From positions 2,531 to 66,530 of the forward strand of contig JAKSIQ010000007.1 of assembly GCA_024398755.1 (NCBI GenBank): a stretch of 64,000 bases of DNA. Reading direction: 5' to 3'. The position numbers and the translations under genes are program-made. Position 1 is the first letter of the stretch, and the number at the start of each line of letters is the position of its first letter. Shown piece by piece: positions 4,177-52,312 of the stretch. Source of the stretch: Bacteroidaceae bacterium. Its GTDB lineage: Bacteria; Bacteroidota; Bacteroidia; Bacteroidales; Bacteroidaceae. Below the pieces are notes generated by a model that worked only from the letters and a program-made list of their open reading frames with translations, did no database searches and was not told the DNA's origin.

Positions 4177-6135
4177 TTAGTTCTTATAGTTACGGGTCTG
4201 TACCTTGATGTATTCGTAGTTCAGAGGTTCCTTGAGCAGTTCAGGAGCCTTGCCTTCGCCCTGATAGTTCCAGCAGGCAACGTATGAGAACTGGTCGTCG
4301 TGACGCAGAGCCTCGCCTTCGGGAGTCTGATGCTCTTCACGGAAATGACCGCCGCATGACTCTTCACGGTTCAGACCGTCGTAAGCCATGAGCTTGCCGA
4401 TTTCAATGAAGTCAAGCAGACGCAGAGCCTTTTCAAGTTCTACATTCAGTGTCTGTGCATTACCAGGAACGCGCAGGTCTGACCAGAAGGTCTTCTCAAC
4501 TTCGTCAAGCTTTGCAAGAGCGGTCTTCAGAGATTCCTCCGTGCGGCCCATACCTACGTATTCCCACATGATGTGACCCAGTTCCTTATGGATTGAATCT
4601 ACAGAACGCTTTCCGTTGATGCCCATAATCTTGGCAATCTTGGCCTTGACGGCATTTTCGGCAGCCTCGAACTCAGGCAGGTCGGTGCTGAAGCGCGGAA
4701 CCTGGATCTGGTCTGACAGATAGTTCTGGATGGTATACGGAAGTACGAAATAGCCGTCGGCCAAACCCTGCATGAGGGCCGATGCGCCCAGACGGTTGGC
4801 TCCGTGGTCTGAGAAGTTGCATTCGCCGATAGCGAACAGGCCCGGTATTGAGGTCTGCAGTTCGTAGTCAACCCAGATACCGCCCATGGTGTAGTGGATG
4901 GCCGGGAAGATCATCATCGGGTTCTCGTACGGGTTCACATCGGTGATTTCCTCGTACATATCGAACAGGTTACCGTACTTGTCGGCTACGGCCTGCTTGC
5001 CAAGACGCTGGATAGCGTACTTGAAGTCAAGGAATACGGCAAGACCGGTGTTGTTTACGCCGAAGCCCTTGTCGCAACGCTCCTTGGCTGCACGTGAAGC
5101 CACGTCACGCGGTACCAGGTTGCCGAATGCAGGATAGCGGCGCTCCAGGTAGAAGTCGCGGTCCTCGTCTGGAATATCGTTAGGATTCAGGGTACCTGCC
5201 TGCAGAGCCTTGGCATCTTCAAGTTTCTTAGGAACCCAGATACGGCCGTCGTTACGCAGTGACTCTGACATCAGAGTGAGCTTTGACTGCTTGTCGCCGT
5301 GTACAGGAATACAGGTCGGGTGAATCTGTGCGAAAGCAGGGTTGGCGAACCATGCGCCCTTGCGGTAGCACTGCATGGCGGCTGAACCGTTGCTGGCCAT
5401 GGCGTTGGTTGACAGGAAGTAGGTGTTGCCGTAACCGCCTGTGCCGATAACCACTGCATGAGCTGAGCAGCGCTTGATTTCACCGGTAACCAGGTCACGA
5501 TAGATGATACCACGTGCACGCTCCTTGCCTTCAGCGTCCTTTATCATTACAAGGTCAAGCATTTCGCAACGTGTGAACAGCTCTACATTGCCCTGCTGTA
5601 CCTGATAGCTCAGTGCTGAGTAGGCACCCAGAAGCAGCTGCTGTCCGGTTTGACCGCGGGCATAGAACGTACGCGATACCTGAGCACCGCCGAATGAACG
5701 GTTGGCCAGGGTTCCGCCGTATTCACGGGCAAACGGAACGCCCTGTGCAACGCACTGGTCTATGATGTTGTTCGATACCTCGGCCAGACGGTAAACGTTG
5801 GCTTCACGTGAACGGTAGTCACCGCCCTTGATGGTATCGTAGAACAGACGGTATACTGAGTCACCGTCGTTCTGGTAGTTCTTGGCAGCGTTGATACCGC
5901 CCTGTGCAGCGATTGAATGGGCACGGCGCGGTGAATCCTGAATGCAGAAGCACTTTACCTTGAAACCAAGGTCACCGAGGGTGGCGGCAGCACTTGCGCC
6001 GGCCAGACCTGAACCTACTACTATGATGTCAAGCTTGCGCTTGTTTGCAGGATTGACAAGTTTCTGATGAGCCTTGTAGTTTGACCATTTTTCAGCCAAC
6101 GGGCCCTCTGGAATTTTTGAATCTATTGTAGCCAT
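4177..6135 (-). CDS. frdA: Fumarate reductase / succinate dehydrogenase flavoprotein subunit
   Basis: Start at M21 ([11 protein letters not shown]), 14 nt after the frdC stop. FAD motifs: [33 protein letters not shown]. Confidence 0.9.
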
Positions 6136-9477: not shown

Positions 9478-11288
9478 ATCCTGAAATGGTCAAACACAAT
9501 CTGCGCCTTTGACTTACCTATTGTACGTGCCAGTTCATCGAATGTAGCCGCACTTACACGTTTCACGCTTTTGAAAGTTCTGATAAGAGTCTCTGCAGTA
9601 GTCTGACCTATTCCGCTAATTTCCGTAAGCTGACTTGAAATCATGGATTTGCTGCGTTTGTTCTTGTGAAAACTGATGGCTACACGATGAACCTCGTCCT
9701 GCATCTGTTCCAACAGTCTGAAAAGTTCACCGTCCGGTTTCACACCTGCCTGAGCACCTGTCCTTGCTGAAATCAGGCCCTCAGTACGATGCCTGGAATT
9801 CTTGACCAGGCCGCCAATTTCAAGGCTAATACCCAATGAATCAGCCACTTGCAAGGCTACAGACATTTGCCCCTTACCTCCATCAACCAATACAAGATCA
9901 GGCAGTTTTCCGCCTTCTTCTACAGTACGTTTCCATCGGCGTGTAAGCACTTCATGCATTGAAGCGTAATCATCGCCACCGACTCCGCTCTTTATATTGT
10001 AAAGTCTGTATTCCTTTTTCAGGGGTTTGCCTCCTTCATATACCACACAAGCTGCTACGGCATTGGTTCCCTGAATATGGGAATTGTCAAAGCATTCTAT
10101 ACGCATTGGCGGTTTTTCCATTCCCAAAAGCGAAGCAAGTTCTCCCAAAAGGCGAACTTTTTTCTGCTCCGGATTCAATTTGTCTGACCGTTTCAACCGA
10201 TCGGCTCTGTATTGTCTGACATTCAGTTCTGAAAGATCAAGCAGTTTTTTCTTTTCTCCACGCTGCGGAACTGTCCAGAAAATGCCGTTCAATTGGGCAG
10301 AAGGCTCAAACGGAACAATGATTTCACGGGCAGTGCTTTTGTAACGGGTCTTCATTTCAACCATACCGAGCAGAAGCACATCTTCAAGGCTTTCATCCAT
10401 TCTGCGTTTGTATTCGAATGTGAATGCCTGATTTATACAACCGTTGGAAACATGCATGTAATTCAAAAATACAAAACTCTCATCTTCTCCTATGCTGAAT
10501 ACGTCAACATTGTCAAGACTCATGTCAACCACACGGCTCTTTTCAGTGAACGCCTGGATAATATCATATTTTTCTTTAAGTTTCTGGGCTTTCTCAAATT
10601 CAAGTTTACCTGCAAGTTCCTTCATCTGCTCTACAAGACTCCGGCTGAGGTCTGCGCTGCGCCCCTTCAGAATTTCTCTGATCTCATTGATTTGACCGAT
10701 ATATTCCTCGTGGCTCTGCTTTCCGATACATGGTGCAAGACATCTGTGGATATGATACTCCAGACATTCGTGATATTTATTGGCATGGATTCCATCGGTG
10801 CTTATTGGCAGGCGGCATGTCCTTACATGATATGCTTTCGAAATAAGATCCATAAGCATATTCAAAGTCCCGACATGACTGTACGGACCGAAGTATTCCA
10901 TACCTTTGGCAGAAGTGTTCCTCACTTTGAACACACGAGGAAACTCTTCCCGTGTAATGCAGATTGAAGGATATGTCTTGTCATCCTTCAGAAGAATGTT
11001 GTATCTGGGCTTATACCGTTTTATCAGATTGTTCTCAAGAAGCAATGCATCCCATTCTGTTTCAACCACAAGATATTTCAAATCCCAGATGTGGCTGACA
11101 AGCAGCTTGGTCTTTTGAGTCTGACCTTCACGGAGAAAATATGAACTGACCCTTCTTTTCAGATTCTTTGCCTTTCCAACGTATATCACAGTTCCGGTTT
11201 CATCAAGATACTGATAGCACCCCGGCTTCTCGGGCAGGTTCTGCACTATAGGCTTGATATGCGTTTCGTATGCTTCGGTGAATCTCAT
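9474..11288 (-). CDS. uvrC: Excinuclease ABC subunit C
   Basis: GIY-YIG N-terminus (PGCYQYLDETGTVIYVGKAKNLKRRVSSY), a UVR domain and a C-terminal HhH. Its stop overlaps the dtd start (ATGA). Confidence 0.95.
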   Translation of the reverse strand: MRFTEAYETHIKPIVQNLPEKPGCYQYLDETGTVIYVGKAKNLKRRVSSYFLREGQTQKTKLLVSHIWDLKYLVVETEWDALLLENNLIKRYKPRYNILLKDDKTYPSICITREEFPRVFKVRNTSAKGMEYFGPYSHVGTLNMLMDLISKAYHVRTCRLPISTDGIHANKYHECLEYHIHRCLAPCIGKQSHEEYIGQINEIREILKGRSADLSRSLVEQMKELAGKLEFEKAQKLKEKYDIIQAFTEKSRVVDMSLDNVDVFSIGEDESFVFLNYMHVSNGCINQAFTFEYKRRMDESLEDVLLLGMVEMKTRYKSTAREIIVPFEPSAQLNGIFWTVPQRGEKKKLLDLSELNVRQYRADRLKRSDKLNPEQKKVRLLGELASLLGMEKPPMRIECFDNSHIQGTNAVAACVVYEGGKPLKKEYRLYNIKSGVGGDDYASMHEVLTRRWKRTVEEGGKLPDLVLVDGGKGQMSVALQVADSLGISLEIGGLVKNSRHRTEGLISARTGAQAGVKPDGELFRLLEQMQDEVHRVAISFHKNKRSKSMISSQLTEISGIGQTTAETLIRTFKSVKRVSAATFDELARTIGKSKAQIVFDHFRI

Positions 11289-11390: not shown

Positions 11391-13265
11391 TCACCTGTTC
11401 AGCAGAACAAGAAGGACATTGATATCACTCGGAGAAACACCTGGAATACGGCTGGCCTGTGCCAGAGTCTCAGGGTCGTGTGAAATAAGCTTCTGGCGGC
11501 ATTCGGTTGAAAGCGACTGCAACGAGGCATAGTCAAAACGCCCTCTTATTCTGATGTCTTCAAGACGTTTCATTTTTGCTGCAATCTGCCTTTCACGATC
11601 AATATAACCGCTGTATTTGATTTGAATCTGGGCCGCCTCAACAATTTCATCCCTGCGTTGCGGATCAATTTTGTCAAGTCGGGCATGCAAAGCATTAATA
11701 TGCGGTGCAAGATTATCAAGAGTAAGCTCTGGGCGCTCTATCAGATCACGTATTTTGCAGCCTTCACGCAAAGGCGCTGTTCCCAATTGCTCGAGAGCAG
11801 GATTTATCAATGCCGGTTTTATAGGATATGTACTGGCAAATTCAATGAGTGACGCTATCTCGTCACGTTTGGAGCACATGGCTTCGTATCTGTCTGCTTT
11901 TGCAAGTCCGACATTGTACGAACGTTCGGTCAGGCGCAAATCGGCATCGTCCTGACGCAATAGTATTCTATATTCGGCCCTGGACGTAAACATTCTGTAT
12001 GGTTCGTCCACGCCTTTGGTTATAAGGTCATCAACAAGAACTCCAATATATGATTCGTCACGCCCCAAAGTGAACGGAACCCCGCCATGGCATGAGATAT
12101 GAGCATTGATACCGGCAAGTATGCCCTGCCCGCCCGCTTCCTCATATCCGGTCGTTCCATTTACCTGACCGGCCATGAAAAGACCGCCAACCACATTCGA
12201 TTCAAGATTGGCAGACAGTTGTGTCGGATCAAAATAGTCATATTCTATTGCATAGCCGGGACGGTATATGACAAGATCGCGGAACGCAGGTATTTCTTTC
12301 AGAGCACGTATCTGAACATCCATCGGCATGGAAGACGAAAAACCGTTCAGATACATTTCTCTGGTTTCAGTTCCTTCCGGCTCCAGAAACAGCTGATGCT
12401 GTTCCTTGTCCGGGAATGTGACAAGCTTGGTTTCTATGCTTGGACAATATCTTGGACCGATGCTTTTAATCTGACCGTTGAAAAGCGGTGAATCCGGCAG
12501 ACCTTTACGCAATTCCTCATGAACGCGTTCATTTGTGAAACATGTCCAGCAGCATAACTGTTCAAGATGCCTCTCGCTACCCATGAAAGAGAAACGATGG
12601 AAGTCATTTTCGCCTTCCTGTGGTTCCATGTCTTCAAAATGCACGCTTCGGCTGTCAATTCTGACCGGAGTACCGGTTTTCATTCTGCCGCTGCGTATTC
12701 CATGACGCGTTATCGATTCTGTAAGCCCGTACGATGCCGGCTCGGCTGTACGACCGCCAGGAATCTGGCATCGGCCAACATGTATAAGTCCGTTCAAAAA
12801 GGTTCCGGCGGTCAGAATAACACATTTGCACTGGAAAACGGCTCCCAACTGTGTTCTGACACCTGTTACATGGCCGTCAGAAACCAGCAGTTCTGTAACC
12901 ATATCCTGCCAGATATGCAGATTTTCCTGATTCTCAAGAACATTGCGCCATGCCCAAATGAACTTTCCACGGTCACATTGTGCTCTGGGGCTCCACATGG
13001 CAGGACCTTTAGACCGGTTCAGAATACGGAACTGTATGGCCGAACGGTCTGTTACAAGACCCATATGTCCGCCCAATGCATCAATTTCGCGGACAATCTG
13101 ACCTTTAGCAATGCCTCCGACAGCAGGATTGCAACTCATCTGACCGATTTTGTTCATGTCAATGGTAATGAGACAGGTTTTTGAACCCATCCCAGCCGAA
13201 GCGGCGGCGGCTTCACAACCGGCGTGACCCGCACCAATGACTACTACATCATACTTGAAATCCAT
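11391..13265 (-). CDS. mnmG: tRNA uridine-5-carboxymethylaminomethyl(34) synthesis enzyme
   Basis: YDVVVIGAGHAGCEAA FAD motif. Full-length GidA-like, 624 aa. Confidence 0.95.
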   Translation of the reverse strand: MDFKYDVVVIGAGHAGCEAAAASAGMGSKTCLITIDMNKIGQMSCNPAVGGIAKGQIVREIDALGGHMGLVTDRSAIQFRILNRSKGPAMWSPRAQCDRGKFIWAWRNVLENQENLHIWQDMVTELLVSDGHVTGVRTQLGAVFQCKCVILTAGTFLNGLIHVGRCQIPGGRTAEPASYGLTESITRHGIRSGRMKTGTPVRIDSRSVHFEDMEPQEGENDFHRFSFMGSERHLEQLCCWTCFTNERVHEELRKGLPDSPLFNGQIKSIGPRYCPSIETKLVTFPDKEQHQLFLEPEGTETREMYLNGFSSSMPMDVQIRALKEIPAFRDLVIYRPGYAIEYDYFDPTQLSANLESNVVGGLFMAGQVNGTTGYEEAGGQGILAGINAHISCHGGVPFTLGRDESYIGVLVDDLITKGVDEPYRMFTSRAEYRILLRQDDADLRLTERSYNVGLAKADRYEAMCSKRDEIASLIEFASTYPIKPALINPALEQLGTAPLREGCKIRDLIERPELTLDNLAPHINALHARLDKIDPQRRDEIVEAAQIQIKYSGYIDRERQIAAKMKRLEDIRIRGRFDYASLQSLSTECRQKLISHDPETLAQASRIPGVSPSDINVLLVLLNR

Positions 13266-13282
13266 TATGGCTTCAAAGATTC

Positions 13283-14254
13283 TTATCTGATTCTATCGAT
13301 TATGAGATTCAGAAAAGCTGCAAATGCAGCACGCTGTTGTGTTGAAACAGATGCTGGCAATACAGACAATGCCTGCAACTTTAACTGACGCATTTTTTCT
13401 ACAGCATAGTCCATTCCACCGTTGGATATACTATACCGTGTAATCTCTGATATTGTTTCCGGCGAAGCCGAAAGCGAACGTACTGACTTGACCTCTTCAG
13501 ACCAGTCACGTTCACTGTGGTTGATGGCATAGATGGACGGAAGCGTGAATTTGCCTTCTTTCAGATCATTGCCGCTTGCTTTACCGGTCTCACTGCAATC
13601 GTGATAGTCAAGAATATCATCCATTATCTGAAAACACAGTCCTGCCTTATGTGCAAAGTCGCCATATGCTGAAATATCTGCTTCGGATGCACCGGAAAGC
13701 TTTGCAGCCAAACGGGCGCTTACAGAAAACAGATAGGCCGTTTTTCTGGATATGATATCAAAATATACTTCTTCCGACAGAACAGGTGAATCCAAAGCTC
13801 CAATCTGGATTATTTCACCTTCGGAAAGAGTACCTATCAGCTTGGAAATTTCATCTATACAGTCAACATTGCCGGCCATTACAATCTGCTGCAGTGCCTG
13901 AGAGACAATGAAATCACCCAAAAGAACTGCCATCTTATTGTCAAATGCCGAATTGACCGATGGTTTTCCGCGACGCAGTTCACTTTCGTCAACTACATCA
14001 TCATGTATCAGACTACCCTGGTGCAACAGTTCAACCGAAGATGCAAGATGATAAATGCTGTCATTTACACAACCGTTGCATTTCGCCACAAGAAGCACAA
14101 GAATAGGACGCATCATCTTGCCTTTTCTGGTAAGAAGAAACTTAAGAAGTGTATCTATCTTCTTATCGGACGATGAAAAAACAAGAGAATAACGGCGTTT
14201 GAATTCTTCAAGTTCCTGACAGACAGGCGCAACAATTGTACTCAGATAATCCAT
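13283..14254 (-). CDS. Polyprenyl diphosphate synthase (trans-IPPS, long-chain type)
   Basis: First and second Asp-rich motifs: LIHDDVVDE and QIMDDILD. Confidence 0.85.
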   Translation of the reverse strand: MDYLSTIVAPVCQELEEFKRRYSLVFSSSDKKIDTLLKFLLTRKGKMMRPILVLLVAKCNGCVNDSIYHLASSVELLHQGSLIHDDVVDESELRRGKPSVNSAFDNKMAVLLGDFIVSQALQQIVMAGNVDCIDEISKLIGTLSEGEIIQIGALDSPVLSEEVYFDIISRKTAYLFSVSARLAAKLSGASEADISAYGDFAHKAGLCFQIMDDILDYHDCSETGKASGNDLKEGKFTLPSIYAINHSERDWSEEVKSVRSLSASPETISEITRYSISNGGMDYAVEKMRQLKLQALSVLPASVSTQQRAAFAAFLNLIIDRIR

Positions 14255-40300: not shown

Positions 40301-41842
40301 TTAGTTTCCTTTTCTGAAATTACCTCCCTTTCTCGGACCGTTCTTCGGACCGTTCTTCTTGTGGTCTCCACCCTTACCTGAGAACGGCTTCCGACCGCTT
40401 TCGCTTCCACTTCCGAACGGTTTGTGCTCACCACCGGCGCGGCGGAACGGTTTGCGTTCTCCGTCTTCACTGTGGTTCTGGAACGGCTTGCGTGAATAAC
40501 TGCGGCCTTCGCGGTCAAATCGGCCTTTACCGGAGAATCTTCCTTTTGGAGACTCCTGTGCGGCTTCATCACGTCCGTTGTCACTTACCAGAATACCGTC
40601 TTCAACTTTCTGCAGACGTTCTGCCTGACGTGCCTTGTGGCGCAGGGTCTGTCCGCGACGGCTTACCGGTTCGCTCTTGTCAAGGAAAGAACCCTTGCCA
40701 CGGAAGTCATTATATCGGCCGTCAAAAATCTCGTATTTGCGCAGTTCGCATGGCAACTGTCCGTTGAACAGGGGTATCTTGGCGCTCGGCTTCAGGCCAA
40801 TCTTGTCAAAGCACTCAAAATGGTAGCTGATGACCCATGCCTGACCGCCCTTGAAGGCGTGTTTCAGACGTTCGCCTATCATTGCATACAGTTCCAGCAG
40901 GTGCTCGTCGTTAAGACGCTCGCCATAAGGCGGATTGGTAATCATTACGGCCGGTTCGGAAATCGGCTCGAAGTCTTTGAAATCGGCCACCTCGAACCTG
41001 ATTACCTCCTGCAGACCGGCTGCCTTGGCATTGGCCTTGGCAATGTTTATGGCCTTGGGGTCCTTGTCGCGGGCAATTATGCTGTGTTCAAAAAGACGTT
41101 CCTGGCTGTCATCATTATAGATGGTCTCGAACAGGTCGCGATCAAAGTCCTTCCACTTTTCAAATGCGTAGCTGGTGCGGAACAGGCCAGGAGCCATGTT
41201 TCTTGCTATGAGCGCGGCTTCAATTGCAATGGTGCCGCTGCCGCACATAGGATCCACAAAGTCGCACTGGCCGTCCCAGCCTGACATGAGCACCATGCCG
41301 GCGGCAAGCACTTCGTTGATGGGAGCTTCGGTGGCAGCCATCTTGTAGCCGCGCTTGTGCAGGCTCTCGCCGCTGCTGTCCAGTGACAGTGAGCAGTCAT
41401 CGTGCGATATGTGTATGTGGAAAGTCAGATCAGGATTGGCTACGCTCACGTTGGGGCGCTTGCCGTATTTCTCGCGGAACCAGTCGGCAATGGCATCCTT
41501 AACACGGTATGCCACGAACTTTGAGTGCCGGAAATCCTCGCTGTTGACAACGGCATCGACTGCAAAACTGTCTGAAAGGTCCATGTACTTGTCCCATTCA
41601 ACGGTCTTGCAGATGTCGTACACCTGGTCGGCATCATCGGCCCTGAAATGGAGAAACGGTTTTAGAATGCGCAATGCTGTGCGCAGATAGAAGTTGGCCT
41701 TGTACATAAGGGCTTTGTCGCCCTTGAAAGATACCATGCGGTTGCCTATGCAGATGCTGTTGGCGCCCAGATTGGTCAGCTCCTTTGCAAGAATCTCTTC
41801 CAGCCCCTGGAAGGTCTTGGCTATCATTTCAAATTCGGTCAT
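40301..41842 (-). CDS. THUMP-domain class I SAM-dependent RNA methyltransferase with a ~135-aa basic C-terminal tail
   Basis: Start at M10 (MTEFEMIAKTFQGLEEILA). DPMCGSGTIAIEA (SAM motif I) and NPPYGERL (motif IV). Tail rich in R/K/G with four KPF repeats. Confidence 0.8.
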   Translation of the reverse strand: MTEFEMIAKTFQGLEEILAKELTNLGANSICIGNRMVSFKGDKALMYKANFYLRTALRILKPFLHFRADDADQVYDICKTVEWDKYMDLSDSFAVDAVVNSEDFRHSKFVAYRVKDAIADWFREKYGKRPNVSVANPDLTFHIHISHDDCSLSLDSSGESLHKRGYKMAATEAPINEVLAAGMVLMSGWDGQCDFVDPMCGSGTIAIEAALIARNMAPGLFRTSYAFEKWKDFDRDLFETIYNDDSQERLFEHSIIARDKDPKAINIAKANAKAAGLQEVIRFEVADFKDFEPISEPAVMITNPPYGERLNDEHLLELYAMIGERLKHAFKGGQAWVISYHFECFDKIGLKPSAKIPLFNGQLPCELRKYEIFDGRYNDFRGKGSFLDKSEPVSRRGQTLRHKARQAERLQKVEDGILVSDNGRDEAAQESPKGRFSGKGRFDREGRSYSRKPFQNHSEDGERKPFRRAGGEHKPFGSGSESGRKPFSGKGGDHKKNGPKNGPRKGGNFRKGN

Positions 41843-41890
41843 CAGTATGTTTGATGAAATAGTGCACAAAGATACTACAAAATTTTGTCA

Positions 41891-41898
41891 TAACTTTG
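41891..41898 (+). promoter_or_regulatory. Candidate -7 box TAACTTTG for the aldose epimerase gene
   Basis: Exact TAnnTTTG, 48 nt upstream of the ATG at 41946. Confidence 0.4.
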
Positions 41899-41945
41899 TA
41901 TCTGGCAATCGGAACATTTCAGAACAGGTTCCGATTTCAAAAAAC

Positions 41946-42836
41946 ATGAACATGGTAATAGGAAACGGCATTATTGAGGCTCAGATTAACGAGATGGGAG
42001 CCGAACTCACGAATCTGAAGAGGTCTGATGGTCAGTTTGAATACATTTGGCAGGCCGATGCCGCCTTCTGGGGCCGTCATGCGCCCATGCTGTTTCCCAT
42101 CGTGGGCAAGGTATGGGACGGCCATTTTCAGGTTGGGGACAAGAGTTATCCAATGTCGCAGCACGGTTTTGCCCGTGACAGCCGGTTCTCCGTACTGAAT
42201 GCCGCCGGTGACAGTGTGGCCCTTGTGCTTGAATCGGATGCTGAAACCTTGAAGAAATATCCGTTCCCGTTCCGCATCGAGGCCGAGTACCGCGTGGCGG
42301 ACTGCTCGCTTGAAGTGTCGTGGCGTGTCACCAACACCGGTTCGGGAGAATTGTTCTTCCAGATTGGAGCCCATCCGGGTTTCAACCTGCCGGACCACAA
42401 TCCCGCCGATTACATACACGGTTATTTCCGCCTGCTGTCAGAAGGGGAGCCGGTCCGCAGTCTTATTGTCGGCAAGCTGACTCCTGACGGCTACCGCAGC
42501 GATGAGGCAGGCCTTATGTCGCTTGATACCGATGCCATGTTGCCGGTTACACCCGGTCTGTTTGCGGCCGATGCGCTCGTTCTTGAGGAACATCAGACCG
42601 ACTGTGTGGAACTGTATGACAAATACGGGAACCGCATGCTGAGTCTGGAATGCCCCTGCGCACCCGTCTGGGGCCTGTGGTCGCCTCCTGCAAAGAACGC
42701 CCCGTTTGTCTGTATCGAACCATGGCAGGGCCGATGTGATGCCGCCGGCTTTACCGGTCCCGTCAGCGAACGCGACTACATCAAGTCGCTTGCCCCCGGC
42801 CGCACTTACACCTTCGCCTACCGCATCACCATCTGA
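41946..42836 (+). CDS. Aldose 1-epimerase family protein (galactose mutarotase-like)
   Basis: Start moved to MNMVIGNGIIEAQINEMGAEL, because the ORF-track start overlaps the divergent methyltransferase gene. Has FPIVG, HGFAR and EPW motifs. Confidence 0.75.
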   Translation: MNMVIGNGIIEAQINEMGAELTNLKRSDGQFEYIWQADAAFWGRHAPMLFPIVGKVWDGHFQVGDKSYPMSQHGFARDSRFSVLNAAGDSVALVLESDAETLKKYPFPFRIEAEYRVADCSLEVSWRVTNTGSGELFFQIGAHPGFNLPDHNPADYIHGYFRLLSEGEPVRSLIVGKLTPDGYRSDEAGLMSLDTDAMLPVTPGLFAADALVLEEHQTDCVELYDKYGNRMLSLECPCAPVWGLWSPPAKNAPFVCIEPWQGRCDAAGFTGPVSERDYIKSLAPGRTYTFAYRITI

Positions 42837-43045
42837 TTTTTTCCGCGTGCTACCCCTCACGATAGGGAAGGAATGCGCCCTGCAGCCCCACTTCTTTTAG
42901 CATTTGAGACTATGGAATTGAGGCTGTGGAATTTACTTGCTAAAATAGACATTATAAATTTTGCATGTTTATAATGTAAATCGCAATTAAATACCTGTGT
43001 ATAAGCGTTATATAGTGTATTTACTGTCTGCTAAATGGTTAATAG

Positions 43046-43090
43046 AAATGTTAATGTATGCCAATTATTTAACTTATCGGCTTAACATTT
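43046..43090 (+). promoter_or_regulatory. Conserved 9-bp inverted repeat AAATGTTAA-N27-TTAACATTT (operator-like), copy L
   Basis: Both arms and the 27-nt spacing are identical in copy R. The right arm ends 16 nt before the -7-like box. Confidence 0.4.
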
Positions 43091-43105
43091 CTCCATTTCC
43101 TGCAT

Positions 43106-43113
43106 CATATTTG
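43106..43113 (+). promoter_or_regulatory. Near-consensus -7 box CATATTTG, copy L
   Basis: One mismatch to TAnnTTTG. It lies inside the longest identical run shared by the two arms, 68 nt upstream of the ATG at 43181. Confidence 0.35.
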
Positions 43114-43180
43114 CGAACACCGCGAAAGAAAGAGAGCGGCGGACAAAACGGAATAACAAAAACAATTAAAAATAAGAATT

Positions 43181-43534
43181 ATGAAAAAGAACATCATCGC
43201 AGCAGCATTGGTAGCAGTTTTCGCAGTAGCTAACGTAAACGCACAGAACTTCGAGTCAGAGGAACCGCAGGCAGAAGTAACAAGTATTGAAACCATAGTC
43301 AGTCAGCTGAATGAAGAAGATGCACAGAGCTTCATCACAATGTACCAGAGAATGATGAAACAGATTGAATGCATCTGCGCACAGAAACTGAGTGACGGGG
43401 AAAAAGCCGGCAGCATAGAAGACATCAAGGATTTCTACTATGAAATGTTCAGCAACATTCTTGTGACAGAGCAGAACGATGCCGCCATGAAGAGCGTATC
43501 ACTTGAATACATTTACAACCGCATTGCAAAGTAA
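43181..43534 (+). CDS. Small secreted protein, paralog A (117 aa, unrecognised family)
   Basis: Signal peptide MKKNIIAAALVAVFAVANVNA|QN. The acidic, probably helical mature part contains DAQSF, MYQ, FSNILVTEQN and EYI..RIAK, all shared with paralog B. Confidence 0.65.
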   Translation: MKKNIIAAALVAVFAVANVNAQNFESEEPQAEVTSIETIVSQLNEEDAQSFITMYQRMMKQIECICAQKLSDGEKAGSIEDIKDFYYEMFSNILVTEQNDAAMKSVSLEYIYNRIAK

Positions 43535-43566
43535 AACCTGTTAAAACAGGGCCTGAGAAATCGGAC

Positions 43567-43605
43567 AGAAGGCTGGTCGCAAGACCGGCCTTCTCGTTTT
43601 TTTTT
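43567..43605 (+). terminator. Rho-independent terminator after paralog A
   Basis: AGAAGGCTGGTC-GCAA-GACCGGCCTTCT forms a 12-bp stem with one G-U pair and a GNRA-type loop, followed by CG and T9. Confidence 0.7.
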
Positions 43606-43607
43606 CA

Positions 43608-43615
43608 TATTTTTG
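43608..43615 (+). promoter_or_regulatory. Candidate -7 box TATTTTTG for the GH31 gene
   Basis: Exact TAnnTTTG, 27 nt upstream of the ATG at 43642 and directly after the terminator. Confidence 0.4.
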
Positions 43616-43641
43616 CAGTAGTTGATACAATAATTATCTGA

Positions 43642-46068
43642 ATGGCTATGTTCAAATTTATCAATTACCGCATAATGGCGGCTGTAGCAATATGCTTGTG
43701 CCTGAATTCCTGTGCAAAAAAACAATACCCTGGCCCTGCCAACGGCATTTTTCACGACGGACTGGAGTTTGAAACCGTCCAGGGGCTGGTAACGGTCACA
43801 GCTCTGACCGACAACGCATTCCGCATAAGGTGCATACCAAAGGGCATCGAACTGCCCGAAATGCAGGAACTGATCTATACTGAAAAGATCGAAAAACCGA
43901 AAATCACTTTCATTGACGGATACCTGGCAGGGAGGTACGCCGGAAGATCAGGCGGCCGTCATCCGAAAGCCACCTTCAAAGGCGGAAACCTGAAACCGGG
44001 ACCCACAGACCGCTATGAGCTGGGTACGGAAAACGGGAGGGGCAAGGTCCTGATTGACGGAGTAACCGGCCTGATGACTTTCACGGATGCCGATGGCAAC
44101 ATTATTCTTGAAGAAGTTCCAGACAGCCGATGCATTACGGCGGGCAGGACCGGCAGTCTCAATTCGCTGTCGGTAAGCCAGGGCTTCAGGACCGATGCGG
44201 ACGAATTCATTACCGGTCTGGGGCAGTTCCAGGACGGTTATCTGAACAACCGCGGACTGACACGCCGCCTGACTCAGGTGAATACCCAAATTTCCATACC
44301 CATGATCATATCCAACAAAGGATATGGCATATTGTGGAACAACTATGGTCTGACCGATTACAATCCGAGCGACTTTACGGTCGAGCTGAAACAGGGCGGG
44401 GAAAGCGGACAGACGGTAACGGTTAATGCTACAGGCACATTGGGCAATGTTCGCGAACGCCGTTCGTTCAACGATTTCACGGGCGAATTTACTGTAAAGG
44501 AAGACGGGCAGTACTCCATTCTGCTGGATGTGGGCCAGGCCATGGCACGCAAGCAGTTCATGACCATTGACGGCGATACGGTATTCAACGTCAACAACAC
44601 CTGGCTCCCGCCAACGACATCGGCCATCGTCAGCCTTGAAAAAGGCACACATAAGGTAAGGGTGAGCGGTTCTCGCGGAGACAAGCCGACAGTCGGAGTG
44701 CGCAAGGTCACAGATCGGACCGTGTTCTCAAGCCCGGTTGCCACGGCACTGGACTACACAGTATTTCTGGGTACTCCCGACGAGATAATATCGGACTTCC
44801 GCACCCTGACAGGCCATGTGCCGGCCATGCCTGAGTGGGCTTTCGGCTACATTCACTGCCGCGAACGCTATGACAGCCAGACGGAACTGCTTGAAAACGC
44901 CACACGCTTCCGCACCGACAGCATTCCCGTTGACGTCATTGTACAGGACTGGCAGTGGTGGGGCAAGTACGGCTGGAACGCCATGCAGTTTGACGAGGAC
45001 AAATACCCGGACCCGAAGGCTATGACTGACAGCCTGCACGACATGGGCATAAAGCTGATGCTTTCAGTATGGTCCAAGATAGACAGGAACTGTCAGGTAG
45101 GAAGTGAAATGCTGGAAAAGGGATATTACATTGACGGGACCGACTGGATTGACTTTTTCAATCCCGATGCAGCGAACAAATACTGGCAGGAATTCAGCGC
45201 AAGACTGCTGCCGACCGGCATTGACGCATGGTGGCAGGATGCCACCGAGCCCGAAAACGATGACCTTTCAGGGCGTATGGTTACCGATCCGGTGACAGGC
45301 GGCATGATTCCCGGTGAGTTCTACCGCAACGCATACCCCAACATGGTAAACAAGACGGTATACGAAGGCCTGCGCAAGGACCAGCCGGACCGCGACCCCA
45401 TGATTCTTACCCGCAGCGGCTTTACAGGCATTCAGCGCTATGGTGCCGTCAACTGGTCAGGAGACGTCGGGAACGATTGGGAGACTCTGCGGCGCCAGAT
45501 TGCCGGAGGTCTGTCGCTGATGGCAACCGGCCAGCCATGGTGGACATTTGATGCAGGCGGATTCTTCCGTCCCGGCAACCAGTACACCGATGCCGACTAT
45601 CAGGAGCGCATGATCAGATGGATACAGACATCGGTCTTCCTGCCGTTCATGCGCGTCCACGGCTATATGAGCCAGACCGAGCCCTGGAGATACCCCGATG
45701 AGACCCGCCGCATATTCGAGAATCAGATAAGACTGCGCTACAAACTGCTTCCGTACATTCTTGAAAGCGCGAAAATGGTCACGGAGCAGGACTACACCAT
45801 GATGCGGCCGCTTGTCTTTGACTTCCCCCATGACAGTGAAGCGCTGAAACAGCAGACACAGTTCATGTTCGGCCCCAGTCTGATGGTATGCCCTGTAACG
45901 GAACCGGGTGTAAAGGAATGGAAAGTCTATCTGCCCAAGAGCGACAGGCTGTGGCATGAAATGAACACCGGTGCTACATACGACACCAGCACCGGGGGAA
46001 TGTATGTCTCAATACCGGTCACTTTGGAATATATCCCGGTCTTCAATACTACAAATGATGCAAGATAA
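43642..46068 (+). CDS. Glycoside hydrolase family 31 lipoprotein (alpha-glucosidase/alpha-xylosidase type)
   Basis: Lipobox LCLNSC. GH31-like motifs: DVIVQDWQWW, GIDAWWQDATEPE (nucleophile region), FLPFMRVHG. 808 aa. Confidence 0.8.
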   Translation: MAMFKFINYRIMAAVAICLCLNSCAKKQYPGPANGIFHDGLEFETVQGLVTVTALTDNAFRIRCIPKGIELPEMQELIYTEKIEKPKITFIDGYLAGRYAGRSGGRHPKATFKGGNLKPGPTDRYELGTENGRGKVLIDGVTGLMTFTDADGNIILEEVPDSRCITAGRTGSLNSLSVSQGFRTDADEFITGLGQFQDGYLNNRGLTRRLTQVNTQISIPMIISNKGYGILWNNYGLTDYNPSDFTVELKQGGESGQTVTVNATGTLGNVRERRSFNDFTGEFTVKEDGQYSILLDVGQAMARKQFMTIDGDTVFNVNNTWLPPTTSAIVSLEKGTHKVRVSGSRGDKPTVGVRKVTDRTVFSSPVATALDYTVFLGTPDEIISDFRTLTGHVPAMPEWAFGYIHCRERYDSQTELLENATRFRTDSIPVDVIVQDWQWWGKYGWNAMQFDEDKYPDPKAMTDSLHDMGIKLMLSVWSKIDRNCQVGSEMLEKGYYIDGTDWIDFFNPDAANKYWQEFSARLLPTGIDAWWQDATEPENDDLSGRMVTDPVTGGMIPGEFYRNAYPNMVNKTVYEGLRKDQPDRDPMILTRSGFTGIQRYGAVNWSGDVGNDWETLRRQIAGGLSLMATGQPWWTFDAGGFFRPGNQYTDADYQERMIRWIQTSVFLPFMRVHGYMSQTEPWRYPDETRRIFENQIRLRYKLLPYILESAKMVTEQDYTMMRPLVFDFPHDSEALKQQTQFMFGPSLMVCPVTEPGVKEWKVYLPKSDRLWHEMNTGATYDTSTGGMYVSIPVTLEYIPVFNTTNDAR

Positions 46069-46555
46069 CAATAACGAACTGTTGTCGGAGGTTGATGAAA
46101 ACGGCAATGTGATTGGCTGTATTACCAGGGGCGAGGCCCATGACGGATGCAAGAAGCTGCATCCGGTGATACACCTGCACGTATTCAATTCAAAAGGAGA
46201 ACTGTATCTGCAGCATCGTCCCAAATGGAAGCTCATACAGCCGGACCGATGGGATACCGCATGCGGCGGTCATGTGGCCTACGGAGAAAGCATTGGCCAG
46301 GCATTTGAACGTGAAGTTTCCGAGGAACTGGGCATCAGCGTTGCCAATGCCGAACCGCTTGGAGCATACGTTTTTGAAAGCGCCCGTGAACGCGAACTGG
46401 TCAACGTGTTCAAGGCAGTCTATGACGGACCCATCAACCCGGACAAGGATGAACTGGACGGCGGCCGGTTCTGGACGCGCACCGAAATTCTTGACTCAAT
46501 GGGGAAAGGAACGCTTACTCCCAACTTCGAATCGGAATACCGCCGCTTCTTCTGA
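46055..46555 (+). CDS. Nudix hydrolase (IDI-like subfamily possible)
   Basis: Start at MMQDNNNELL, overlapping the GH31 3' end by 14 nt. Nudix box GGHVAYGESIGQAFEREVSEELGI. Confidence 0.8.
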   Translation: MMQDNNNELLSEVDENGNVIGCITRGEAHDGCKKLHPVIHLHVFNSKGELYLQHRPKWKLIQPDRWDTACGGHVAYGESIGQAFEREVSEELGISVANAEPLGAYVFESARERELVNVFKAVYDGPINPDKDELDGGRFWTRTEILDSMGKGTLTPNFESEYRRFF

Positions 46556-46611
46556 GCCGGACCGTTCAGCTAACCGGACTTTTCCTCGAACCAGGCTTTG
46601 CAGGTAGAATC

Positions 46612-47073
46612 TTACCAGGAAAGCATTATGCGGAATGACATGCGGTCAGGAATGCCTCCGGCAAAATCGCTGTCGGTGACATATACCGTCAGACCTCCGT
46701 CCCAATATTCGCAATCAATGGTGCTGGTCCACCTGTCACCCTGTTCGTTCTCGTAATGGCGGACGCATGGCAGGGTCATCTGAGAATCACGGCCTGTGTA
46801 CAGATAGCAGTTTATCTGACCCCAGTTTAGAACGTTGCAGGTGATTTTCGGAATTCTGACATCGGCCTTGTAATATGTATTCAAACCATGACTGTCAGAA
46901 ACCTTTGTCCAATGGTCGATGTAGAATTCGCCGCTGTACATATTGACTTCTTCCGCAATCTCGCTGCGTAAAGTGCGTGTGTCATTATCGCATGACATCA
47001 GTCCGAATGTCATGAATGCAATCGCAACCGTTGTAATGATCTTTGTTTTCATAAGCTTTGATTTATTTTTCAT
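46612..47073 (-). CDS. Hypothetical small lipoprotein
   Basis: MKTKIITTVAIAFMTFGLMSC lipobox. Beta-rich and Cys/Trp-containing. No family recognised. The start could be 47073 or 47052. Confidence 0.5.
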   Translation of the reverse strand: MKNKSKLMKTKIITTVAIAFMTFGLMSCDNDTRTLRSEIAEEVNMYSGEFYIDHWTKVSDSHGLNTYYKADVRIPKITCNVLNWGQINCYLYTGRDSQMTLPCVRHYENEQGDRWTSTIDCEYWDGGLTVYVTDSDFAGGIPDRMSFRIMLSW

Positions 47074-47292
47074 GACAAAGATTGCAGTGGAAATTTACCC
47101 GCAAAAGGGAAATTTCCTAAAGTCTTCGGGGAAATATCCTACAAAACGCAGTGAAGGCCGTTATCACAACGGCCTCCACTTACAATAATCAAAAATCCAA
47201 TTTAATGCCGGCCATTGAACCCGGCCGGAAGGTTTGGCGCCGTTTTACGGCTGGCGCCCGCCGTTCCTATTTATAACTCTTTCTAAAAAAAC

Positions 47293-47646
47293 TTACTTTG
47301 CAATACGACCGTTGATGTATTCCATTGAAATGCTGTTCATAGCAACTTCGTTCTGTTCTGTTACCAGAATGTTGCTGAACTTTTCAGAATATTCATCCTT
47401 TATGTTTTCAATCTTTGCGGTCTTCTGATCCTCGCTGATTTCCTTTGAGCATACAGCCTGGATTTCGTTGAGAAGTTTCTGATACATAGGCAGGAAGCTC
47501 TGTGCGTCGTCCTGGCTGAGTTCGGCAACTACCTGCTGAATGCTGTTGATTTCATTCTGAGTCTCTTCAACTGCCACGTTCTGTGCGTTTACGTTGGCTA
47601 CTGCGAAAACTGCTACCAATGCTGCTGCGAAAATGTTCTTTTTCAT
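47293..47646 (-). CDS. Small secreted protein, paralog B (117 aa)
   Basis: Start moved to M27 of the ORF (MKKNIFAAALVAVFAVANVNA|QN). Same length as paralog A and collinear with it. Confidence 0.65.
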   Translation of the reverse strand: MKKNIFAAALVAVFAVANVNAQNVAVEETQNEINSIQQVVAELSQDDAQSFLPMYQKLLNEIQAVCSKEISEDQKTAKIENIKDEYSEKFSNILVTEQNEVAMNSISMEYINGRIAK

Positions 47647-47710
47647 AATTCTTATTTTTTTGTTTTTACTTTTCTGTTTTGTTGTTTGCCGCTCTCTTTC
47701 GCGGTGTTCG

Positions 47711-47718
47711 CAAATATG
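47711..47718 (-). promoter_or_regulatory. Near-consensus -7 box CATATTTG, copy R
   Basis: Same sequence and context as 43106-43113. Confidence 0.35.
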
Positions 47719-47733
47719 ATGCACGAAACGGAA

Positions 47734-47778
47734 AAATGTTAAGTCATAAAGTTAATTATTTGGCATACATTAACATTT
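47734..47778 (-). promoter_or_regulatory. Conserved inverted repeat AAATGTTAA-N27-TTAACATTT, copy R
   Basis: Identical arms and spacing to copy L. The spacer sequence differs at several positions. Confidence 0.4.
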
Positions 47779-47958
47779 ATATTAACCATTTAGCATGCGA
47801 TAAATATACTACATAATGTTTATATACAGGTATTTAATTGTGATTTATATTATAAACATGCAATATTTATGCTATCGTTTTTAGCAAGTACGCAGGATAG
47901 GGATGCAACACATCAAAAAATACTGTAGGTACAATTTGGAAAACTTGTAATGCACTTC

Positions 47959-50213: not shown

Positions 50214-52016
50214 TCATTTGTCCCACTCCAGGACTGTGATGTTCATGCCGAACACGTAACTGTAGTCAACACGGTCTGAAAGCTTGTTGACAAGATACAG
50301 GCGTGTGTCGCGCTCTGACGGAACATAATCGGGCTTTTGGATGTTCTGTGTCATGTCGGCGTCGAACTCAAGCGGATTGTCGGGAGTTCCGTTATCCTTG
50401 ATTATAAGACGGAAAACCTTGTCGGTTTCAATGAATGACAGGTCAAAGGAACTGATGTTCCTGCGCAGTCTCTTTTCTCCGACACTTGCACACAGTTCAA
50501 TGCAGCAGTATTGTATGTGATCTATTATTTGTTGGGGTATCTGGCAGACCTCGGTAAATACATTCAGATCATGCATCATGCTTTCCATTTTCGTCAGCTT
50601 GAAATCCATGCTGTAGTCAAAACGGACATTGACTGTAGTGGTGTCGAGCATAAGGAAACGCATGACGCCTTTGTTGCGCCTGTGGAATCCGTATGCGTAC
50701 AGCAGCGCACCAATAACCATTGGAATGCTGCCGGTTACAAATCCCAGCCACAGTTTCTGGGCCGATACGGCCGACCATGCCATCATGTTCAGCGCAGTCA
50801 GTATACCTATGCCGAAGATAACTACAATTTTTCCTTCAACGTGTCCCATCAACTGCATGACAACTGTCGAATAAACGGCCAGGAAGGCGAAACACAGGTA
50901 AAATACGCCGAAGCAGGCAAACGGCATTCTGCAGGAGTCGCTCATTTCGGGCGTGTTCATGCCGAAGCAGACAAGAATAAGCTGCGGGAACAGAGCCATT
51001 ACCAAAGCCAGAATGCTGAAGAACACCAGTGTCATCCTGATGCATCGTTCCATTACAAACCTGATGCCTTCATTGTCAGATTCTCCCTGCATGCGGCAGA
51101 TGTGTGAAATGCCGGCAATGCATATTCCGACAACCAGTCCGAATGTGACCGATTCAACCTGAATGCACAGACCGAACTGTGACAGGGCCAGTGCTCCCAG
51201 TGAATGTGAAATCAGAGTGTTGCAGAACAGAACGAACAGATTTATGACAATATAGAAGATATTGAAACCGAATCCCTGTTTCAGATTCTGTCCCAGCATA
51301 CTCCAGAAAGTCGTGTCAAAAGCCCTGCTGTTGAAACGGTATGAACTTTTGCCTTTCAGGAAGTGAGGTATGTATATGGCCAGATTCGTGATTCCAGAAA
51401 TGACGGTTGACCATGCCGCGCCGGCAATACCCCAGTTGAAGACGGCAATGAATACAATGTCAAGAATCACATTCACCGAGTTTGATATGATGACACTTCT
51501 GGTAACAAGTTCCGGATGTCCTTCAACCGAAATGAAATTGTTCATTGTGGTGCAGAACGGCACGAACAGGAAATAGGCCAGCATAATGCCCAGATATATT
51601 CTGACTTGTGCCGCTCCGTTCTCGCCAGGGCAGAGAAATCTGCTTATCCCGTTCAGGTTCAGCGCTATTGTCATAATTGCAACGAGTGCAACCGCTACGG
51701 CCGACGTCAGAGAAATGGTGAAAATCCTGTTTGCCTGATCCCTGTTACCCGATGCGAGCTGCTTTGCGGCCAGAACACTTCCGCCCATGTTGCATATCAG
51801 CGTCAGAACGCTTACCGCATTTACCAGAGGCATGACGGTGTTAACCGCATTGAACGCATCGGTCCCCAACAGATTGCCGGTGCAGAGTCCGTCCACAAGT
51901 GTGGTTATGAGCGGTGCTATGGCTGTAAGAGTTGTGGAAACCAGTGTGGTCTTGAAACTGAAATCCAGCAGAAGGTGGTTCCTTCTTGCCGTTCCGTCTT
52001 CAATCTGTCTGCTCAT
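50214..52016 (-). CDS. MATE-like polytopic transporter with an additional ~155-aa cytoplasmic C-terminal domain
   Basis: Start taken at M63 of the ORF (MSRQIEDG); 52091 is also possible. About 12 TM segments over about 440 aa, followed by a soluble domain at 50214-50684. Confidence 0.65.
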   Translation of the reverse strand: MSRQIEDGTARRNHLLLDFSFKTTLVSTTLTAIAPLITTLVDGLCTGNLLGTDAFNAVNTVMPLVNAVSVLTLICNMGGSVLAAKQLASGNRDQANRIFTISLTSAVAVALVAIMTIALNLNGISRFLCPGENGAAQVRIYLGIMLAYFLFVPFCTTMNNFISVEGHPELVTRSVIISNSVNVILDIVFIAVFNWGIAGAAWSTVISGITNLAIYIPHFLKGKSSYRFNSRAFDTTFWSMLGQNLKQGFGFNIFYIVINLFVLFCNTLISHSLGALALSQFGLCIQVESVTFGLVVGICIAGISHICRMQGESDNEGIRFVMERCIRMTLVFFSILALVMALFPQLILVCFGMNTPEMSDSCRMPFACFGVFYLCFAFLAVYSTVVMQLMGHVEGKIVVIFGIGILTALNMMAWSAVSAQKLWLGFVTGSIPMVIGALLYAYGFHRRNKGVMRFLMLDTTTVNVRFDYSMDFKLTKMESMMHDLNVFTEVCQIPQQIIDHIQYCCIELCASVGEKRLRRNISSFDLSFIETDKVFRLIIKDNGTPDNPLEFDADMTQNIQKPDYVPSERDTRLYLVNKLSDRVDYSYVFGMNITVLEWDK

Positions 52017-52130
52017 AGTCGTATATGAAATGCATTCTTTGACAAGACCAAAGATAATGCATTTTGCTTTCCAATGATTTATTCTTTTCATTTTGTATAC
52101 ATACTTGCACCGTATAATATGAAAAAGCAG

Positions 52131-52138
52131 TACCTTTG
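52131..52138 (+). promoter_or_regulatory. Candidate -7 box TACCTTTG for metK
   Basis: Exact TAnnTTTG. Its context GAAAAAGCAGTACCTTTGCACC is almost the same as the tRNA-Leu box. It would give a leader of about 170 nt. Confidence 0.4.
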
Positions 52139-52312
52139 CACCGACAATGTGGAAAGATTTGACCGCATTCGGGTTCCGGCCTGATGCGCCGACAGCTTGC
52201 AACCACTGAAAAAAATGCTAAAAGTCAACATTTCAAGACTCCCGTATGGAGTCGTTCAGCAGGTTTCCCCATTGTCATGTTTTATGCCAATGGGTAATTT
52301 TTTTTGTAAATC
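52139..52312 (+). promoter_or_regulatory. Long structured metK 5' leader (riboswitch/attenuator candidate, class unassigned)
   Basis: No co-directional gene lies upstream. Contains hairpin GACTCC-CGTAT-GGAGTC (52237-52253) and a terminal hairpin plus T8 just before the ATG. Confidence 0.4.
52268..52305 (+). terminator. Terminator-like hairpin plus T8 inside the metK leader
   Basis: CCCATTG...CAATGGG forms a 7-bp stem, extendable by CAT/ATG, followed by TAATTTTTTTT. It ends 8 nt before the metK ATG. Confidence 0.45.

Follow-up and report, generated by a model that had tools for sequence, protein, structure and literature searches.

What kind of event places two similar genes face to face in a bacterial chromosome, and does the DNA between them turn over? 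This question is raised by a locus in a 64,000-nucleotide stretch from a Bacteroidaceae bacterium (assembly GCA_024398755.1, contig JAKSIQ010000007.1, positions 2,531 to 66,530, forward strand; hereafter the window), in which two inverted modules, each with a gene for a small secreted protein, bracket a GH31 glycoside hydrolase gene, a Nudix hydrolase gene and a small lipoprotein gene. We compared it with related Bacteroidaceae loci drawn from metagenome-assembled genomes (MAGs) and metagenomes (L001 to L011 below). The locus has the look of something that recombination between old paralogs would ordinarily produce, and not of a programmed switch in the DNA. Our preferred explanation, which we hold to be probable, is that old paralogous units were inverted by rearrangement and have exchanged sequence by homologous recombination.

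The inverted arms are two transcription units

Gapped blastn of the window against itself found a sole match, 42934-43534 against 47890-47293 (605 columns, 75.9% identity, E 5e-120), and the inverted arms of about 600 bp that an earlier note on this DNA had described are present as it described them, edges included. The left arm has 601 nt (plus strand) and the right arm 598 nt (minus strand). The repeat finder resolved two inverted block pairs within them, 42934-43132/47692-47890 (199 nt, 86%) and 43168-43288/47539-47659 (121 nt, 82%). MAFFT alignment showed that the homology is sharply bounded in both arms, with an outer start at TACTTGCTAA and an inner end at ATTGCAAAGTAA. The longest runs identical between the arms are 34, 27 and 24 nt, and 34 nt was also the maximum given in that note. 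Its account of the arms as paralogous modules, non-coding DNA and a 117-codon gene in each, agrees with our results, as does its description of the 3758-nt interval (43535-47292) with GH31, an overlapping Nudix gene and an oppositely oriented lipoprotein gene. The parts of the two units are as follows.

42934..43180, plus strand: left regulatory module of the type-A unit, 247 nt (alignments and segment identities)
43038..43086, plus strand: operator-like symmetric motif GTTAA-N7-GTTAA-N7-CAA-N4-TTAAC-N7-CTTAAC (pattern match)
43106..43139, plus strand: promoter -7-like box CATATTTG, then the hairpin of the 5' untranslated region (5'UTR) (consensus scan and folds)
43181..43534, plus strand: type-A small secreted protein gene, 117 aa, signal peptide at residues 1-22
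43567..43594, plus strand: terminator hairpin of the type-A unit, 12-bp stem, followed by a T-run and the GH31 promoter-like TATTTTTG
47150..47292, minus strand: 3' region of the type-B unit, two conserved hairpins and the terminator (47180-47150) (folds and homology)
47293..47646, minus strand: type-B small secreted protein gene, 117 aa
47647..47890, minus strand: right regulatory module of the type-B unit, 244 nt, operator-like motif at 47786-47738

Judging from this anatomy, each arm appears to be a complete transcription unit, composed of a regulatory module, a 5'UTR hairpin, a 117-codon gene and its own terminator. Both terminators lie outside the detectable arm homology; that of type A has a homolog behind the A gene of L010, and the type-B 3' region is 80% identical to L010 2345-2470. 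The intergenic junction between the right module and PIF1 is homologous to the junction between PIF1 and module 1 of L010.

A Pfam scan of the submitted open reading frames (ORFs) of at least 150 aa over 1-56.7 kb found housekeeping genes only and, as the earlier note had stated, no integrase, transposase, invertase or SusC/SusD, nor any serine or tyrosine recombinase. This negative covers the scanned ORFs of the window, and a recombinase encoded elsewhere in the genome could act in trans. The last 7 kb of the window are housekeeping DNA syntenic with L001. Independent Logan assemblies from other sequencing runs reproduced window positions 41807-43226 and 47626-44952 at 99.2-100% identity, which confirms the junction of AldEpi with the left module and the order B, lipoprotein, Nudix and GH31; the PIF1-module and A-GH31 junctions lie outside the confirmed stretches.

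The two small genes are old paralogs with separate orthologs

The type-A and type-B proteins of the window are 60% identical to each other (E 1e-38). Type A is 81-85% identical to the lone small protein of L001, L002, L003, L007, L008 and L010, while type B shares 75-79% identity with the proteins of L004-L006 and L011 and about 61% with type A. Between the mature coding parts of the two arms the proportion of synonymous differences (pS) is 0.82, so synonymous sites are saturated. The ratio of nonsynonymous to synonymous change (dN/dS) is 0.04-0.18 in all pairs, with 0.08-0.14 for type A against its orthologs and 0.04 for type B against L011. Such low ratios in every comparison show that both copies are functional genes under purifying selection. 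On this evidence the left and right small genes are evidently old paralogs, each with orthologs of its own. The tree of the flanking genes was (L004,(L011,(window,(L010,L002,L001,L008)))), with the window outside the last group (the A-clade) and L011 further out.

The arms are mosaics

Identity between the arms differs from segment to segment. The distal module (42934-43048) is 84% identical arm to arm and only 45-55% identical to every other locus, whereas the mature coding part is 64% identical arm to arm and 74-82% identical to its own type. Between them, the proximal module is 79% identical arm to arm and about 80-82% identical to A-clade loci, and the signal-peptide codons are 95.5% identical arm to arm and 94-100% identical to other loci. 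We counted informative sites in the quartet of the left arm, the right arm, L010 and L011 (winL, winR, L010, L011). The results showed that 19 sites of the distal module group the arms and 1 groups by type, as against 3 and 34 in the mature part (Fisher p 4e-11). The maximum chi-square breakpoint falls between 43099 and 43157, its observed value being reached in none of 10000 permutations (0/10000), and eight further quartets agree with the mosaic.

These results show that the arms are mosaics. The simplest reading of the aligned sequences would be arm-to-arm gene conversion in the window lineage after the A-clade split, because the right outer junction matches module 1 of L010, yet the distal module resembles the left arm alone. 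Gene conversion, which the earlier note had raised as a possibility, is thus seen here as a clear mosaic.

The layout of the locus differs among relatives

The layout of the window, read from PIF1, is PIF1, B, lipoprotein, Nudix (reverse), GH31 (reverse), A (reverse) and AldEpi. L008 and L010 have PIF1, the A unit, a type-B unit without an ORF, GH31 (followed by Nudix in L010 only), the lipoprotein gene in reverse and AldEpi; L001 is the same minus PIF1, and L002 and L003 share the left part, their contigs stopping inside GH31. L011 has PIF1, B, lipoprotein, two extra genes (including Y), a second B unit (B'), GH31, an extra gene Z, Nudix and AldEpi. The inverted pairing of units occurs in the window only; none of the six related species sampled has it. 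The earlier note had held that small genes without conserved pairing in related genomes would speak against its proposal; since the pairing is conserved in no relative, the synteny counts in part against it. Its view of the locus as a self-contained inverted segmental duplication does not hold, for the units diverged anciently, have separate orthologs and stand in tandem or direct orientation in relatives.

Blastn against L010 placed the window flanks on the minus strand and 43049-47134 on the plus strand, and this segment is opposite to the PIF1/AldEpi flanks relative to L010, L008 and L001. The inverted interval includes the A unit, so a simple crossover between the arms is not the sole event behind it. 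Of the cassette flipping suggested in the earlier note, the part that stands is that the enclosed segment is differently oriented in relatives; the agency of RecA is a presumption.

The breakpoint graph, counted by hand, separates the window from L011 by one inversion of [unit-GH31-Nudix]. Most of the rearrangement breakpoints in the comparisons made lie at unit edges. Three steps separate the window from the A-clade, and the attempt to trace the history along a single path did not succeed.

The ORF-less type-B unit between the A gene and GH31 is an observation in its own right. It occurs in all five A-clade loci, from three or more species:

L010, 2121-2470: ORF-less type-B unit
L001, about 10470-10700: ORF-less type-B unit
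L002, about 5085-5440: ORF-less type-B unit
L003: ORF-less type-B unit
L008, about 10470-10700: ORF-less type-B unit

Read in L010 against the right arm, this unit retains the module, the 5'UTR hairpin, a B-specific 3' insertion of about 80 nt and the terminator, and the ORF is gone between ...GATAAG and TAAGTTTTT. Its stems are kept by compensatory changes (CCGC/GCGG, GCCGC/GCGGC and GTGGC/GCCAC). The deletion junction of L010, L002 and L003 differs from that of L001 and L008.

L011, a MAG from horse faeces, carries its two type-B units as direct copies at 9760-10425 and 12681-13349 (669 nt, 98.2% identical), flanking the lipoprotein gene and two extra genes. Their near-identity is consistent with a recent duplication or with strong concerted evolution.

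Regulatory modules and a constrained leader

The left module has a distal portion (42934 to about 43048) that is genome-specific and a proximal portion that is conserved in all relatives. The operator-like motif was matched twice in the window, once per arm, against 0 expected, and was found in every small-gene unit of L001-L011. The consensus scan of the left arm pointed to TTAACA-18-CATATT(TG) at 43082-43111 as a putative promoter, and RNA folds gave the stem of the 5'UTR hairpin as CCGC...GCGG (43120-43123/43136-43139). In L001 and L008 the ORF-less units maintain this hairpin through compensatory changes.

The last 15 nt or so of the 5'UTR and codons 1-22 are near-invariant at the nucleotide level (43166-43246, 47661-47581 and the same stretch of L001-L011), with a pS of 0-0.2 in species whose synonymous sites are saturated in the remaining gene. 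Because this near-identity is common to all species, it reflects nucleotide-level constraint, not conversion. We considered a stable RNA structure as its cause, and this was unsupported (z 0.5 to -0.7).

The type-B unit carries, before its terminator, the 3' insertion of about 80 nt with two hairpins (47190-47292, minus strand; L010 2345-2440). Folded together, the three hairpins score z -2.7 in the window and z -2.2 in the L010 homolog, and between the two both stems of the insertion show compensatory changes; the insertion has no Rfam match. An Rfam scan of 41-50 kb with E up to 1 matched nothing.

An exact-pattern scan of metagenome_contigs with TCWTATTTGCGAACACCGC listed at least 120 stretches; the module was absent from all of them, and nearly all were copies of one unrelated human-gut sequence. 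The 19-mer TCATATTTGCGAACACCGC of the module is present by chance in that abundant, highly conserved sequence (L014-L133). By eye, the module start resembled the GH31 promoter region, as if the unit had terminal inverted repeats; L010 does not share the resemblance, and the idea was dropped.

Origin of the locus

According to our preferred explanation, the unit would already have been duplicated in the ancestor of this group of uncultured Bacteroidaceae, since both units are present in relatives and the units are therefore older than the window layout. A rearrangement in the window lineage, most simply one inversion of [unit-GH31-Nudix] from an L011-like arrangement, would have left two units facing each other across GH31, Nudix and lipoprotein genes. 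Later arm-to-arm gene conversion would have kept the outer 115-170 nt or so of the modules alike, and the mature coding parts would have stayed distinct under purifying selection. The agent was presumably RecA-type recombination, and the order of the rearrangement events given here is likewise presumptive. The unit next to GH31 in the common ancestor may have been A or B. Occasional flips of the middle segment may occur and would be functionally neutral, because the promoters of the two arms are near-identical and directed inward, and a terminator closes each unit.

Several results sit less well with this explanation. The distal module aligns poorly elsewhere, and alignment noise inflates its count of sites that group the arms; the contrast in distal identity, 84% against about 50%, is independent of such noise. 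The high identity of the 5'UTR and signal codons belongs to all species and is to be set down to constraint, which takes it out of the evidence for conversion. The window and the A-clade are separated by three double-cut-and-join steps (hand count), and the history has not been fully reconstructed. In addition, the neighbour of GH31 is a B remnant in the A-clade and A in the window.

Ongoing flipping is compatible with the preferred explanation. In its stronger form, 43535-47292 would be an active flip-flop, with RecA crossovers in the 24-34-nt runs at measurable frequency and both orientations in the population. This we regard as unlikely, though worth keeping in mind. The 34-, 27- and 24-nt runs, the exchange recorded in the mosaic and the varying orientation of the middle segment between species all fit it; the arms are, however, just 76% identical overall and have no run longer than 34 nt. 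A length of about 34 nt is close to the minimum for efficient RecA recombination in E. coli. The 16% difference between the distal modules means that the last exchange there was not recent, and a flip would leave the pairing of promoters and genes unchanged and so would offer no selectable phenotype. Same-species Logan contigs from several runs, retrieved via lipoprotein and aldose epimerase look-ups, end without exception within the 34-nt run common to both arms (L134-L137 start at 47626 and L145 ends at 43226). Such ends are compatible with a mixed population and are also the behaviour expected of a k=31 graph, so these public short assemblies cannot phase the orientation of the middle segment. 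In SRR21151029, from which contigs of both sides were retrieved, there is one junction type per side.

It is also conceivable, if rather doubtful, that the repeated unit is itself an undescribed regulatory device at the nucleic-acid level, an operator with a leader or small RNA. The unit would then place GH31 and a rare CpxP/Spy-like periplasmic protein under common regulation, and its repeated copies would drive local rearrangement as a by-product. The suggestion comes from the freezing of the module, the 5'UTR and the first 22 codons across species and from the keeping of the ORF-less unit upstream of GH31.

The staggered-break model of inversion with breakpoint duplication, documented in Drosophila (Ranz et al. 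2007, PMC1885836), would make the arms one gene copied at two breakpoints, so that the inversion itself created the duplication. The window resembles this model: its middle segment is turned round with respect to the A-clade and lies between inverted copies whose homology has sharp edges on both sides. It differs in that the copies are older than the inversion and each has orthologs of its own: uninverted relatives carry both units (the ORF-less B unit at five loci, two units in L011) and not a single copy, each coding part is closer to orthologs elsewhere than to the other arm, and the synonymous sites between arms are saturated. Moreover, the outer edge TACTTGCTA is a module edge in L010 too. 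Such an origin is already contradicted by these results, and we consider it very improbable.

Inverted repeats that bracket surface-lipoprotein genes in a Bacteroidaceae genome bring to mind a programmed element with site-specific inversion, an inverton or shufflon of the Bacteroides type, by which GH31 and the lipoprotein gene would undergo phase variation. We find such an element scarcely credible here, for the Pfam-scanned ORFs of the window include no serine or tyrosine recombinase, the arms are diverged 600-nt gene copies and not short recognition sites (tens of bp), and the layout is absent from the six related species sampled. From the anatomy of the arms, with inward promoters each followed by a terminator, inversion would switch no gene.

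An assembly artefact or chimeric contig comes to mind because the source is a metagenome-assembled genome, but it is next to impossible, since the arms have no more than 34 identical bases in common, which would not lead a k=141-type assembly astray, and independent assemblies reproduce the stretches given above. A composite transposon or IS-flanked segment was rejected, because the 117-aa product of the arms is a secreted helical protein that has no transposase domain.

The small secreted proteins and the enclosed genes

The small-protein family is rare. A word-indexed search of 5.8 billion sequences found 7 proteins, and a full HMMER search gave 25 matches among 1.84 billion cluster representatives. 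Neither of the two window proteins has a significant match in Pfam or NCBIfam. Exact look-ups of both returned gene-sized records only, and a protein-pattern scan of metagenome_contigs for the small gene found no relatives. The AlphaFold2 (AF2) model is a helical bundle with a predicted local confidence (pLDDT) of 84-93 in the mature part, which has about 95 residues. A sequence search of the Protein Data Bank (PDB) with the family profile gave nothing significant, and Foldseek with the AF2 model gave a best E of 0.63, with no Spy or CpxP chain listed.

The most distant family hit, P0028, matches LTXXQ at 5.6e-9 as well as CpxP/Spy models, and it alone does so for LTXXQ among 18 family members scanned. 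Aligning the family with P0028 by hhalign gave a 96.6% probability (E 5.6e-10, 100 columns), a score inflated by the inclusion of the signal peptides. Because the alignment takes these in, we grade the small proteins as probable distant relatives of CpxP/Spy (LTXXQ, PF07813). They resemble that family in size, signal peptide, all-helical fold and an L[VT]TEQ motif, but differ in having no direct Pfam or NCBIfam match, no CpxP/Spy by Foldseek and a very small family.

The segment between the arms contains the following features.

43642..46068, plus strand: GH31 glycoside hydrolase, 808 aa, lipoprotein-type signal peptide (Pfam Glyco_hydro_31_2nd, 2e-88)
46055..46555, plus strand: Nudix hydrolase gene, overlapping the GH31 end (Pfam NUDIX, 6.8e-16)
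46612..47073, minus strand: small lipoprotein gene, 153 aa (146 aa from the second Met), family unknown
47107..47120, minus strand: palindrome TTAGGAAATTTCCC upstream of the lipoprotein gene (read from sequence)

GH31 has its own promoter-like box after the type-A terminator. NCBIfam models for alpha-glucosidase and alpha-xylosidase match it below their cut-offs, and no SusC/SusD pair, the criterion for a polysaccharide utilisation locus, stands beside it among the Pfam-scanned ORFs. The lipoprotein has no significant match in Pfam or NCBIfam. Its palindrome (TTAGGAAATTTCC) is conserved upstream of homologs in L011, L139 and L143 (about 9930-9950 in the last two); in more distant species the homologs stand alone in unrelated neighbourhoods and the palindrome travels along. 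The Nudix gene is absent from L001 and L008. Given that the Nudix gene is missing there and the lipoprotein gene is solitary elsewhere with its own palindrome, GH31, Nudix and lipoprotein are independent genes, and the 'cassette' is not a functional unit.

Outside the locus, the C-terminal part of a MatE-family transporter ORF (50214-52202, minus strand) weakly matches an ATPase domain of the histidine-kinase type (HATPase_c_2, E 7e-4), which, if real, would be an unusual fusion within one ORF.

Comparison with known systems

This locus offers a small-scale view of duplicated promoter-gene units reshuffling a core-genome neighbourhood in uncultured gut Bacteroidaceae, with three different layouts among sister species. 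It indicates that conversion can homogenise regulatory DNA while coding parts diverge. It is also a warning for annotation, as long inverted repeats around Bacteroidales surface-protein genes are not necessarily phase-variation switches. The rare small secreted family and the frozen stretch of promoter, leader and signal peptide may be of use to work on gene regulation in Bacteroidetes; neither changes a major open question.

Bacteroides invertons and shufflons, reportedly described by Cerdeno-Tarraga and colleagues in 2005, are said to comprise site-specific invertible promoters and gene-shuffling loci. The window is like them in having inverted repeats near genes for surface or secreted proteins in a Bacteroidales genome. 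It is unlike them in that its scanned ORFs include no recombinase gene, it lacks a promoter that would change its target on inversion, its arms are long and 24% diverged, and its layout is not conserved in relatives.

The architecture, which the earlier note did not recognise as a described system, is a familiar case of inverted paralogs that recombine, and the closest known kind is a recombining pair of this sort, such as tufA/tufB or the arms of palindromes. The tufA and tufB genes of Salmonella are reportedly inverted paralogs with RecA-dependent gene conversion and occasional inversion, as Abdulkarim and Hughes are said to have found in 1996. Arm-to-arm conversion is also described in palindromes (PMC3723533). 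The window differs from tufA/tufB in that conversion has touched only the outer non-coding stretch and the coding parts are 60% identical at the amino acid level, not near-identical, and in that the interval is just 3.8 kb, with a presumed role for RecA. Like tufA/tufB, the window has two inversely oriented paralogs on one replicon, its arms carry sequence evidence of exchange, no dedicated recombinase accompanies them, and the DNA between them is inverted between lineages.

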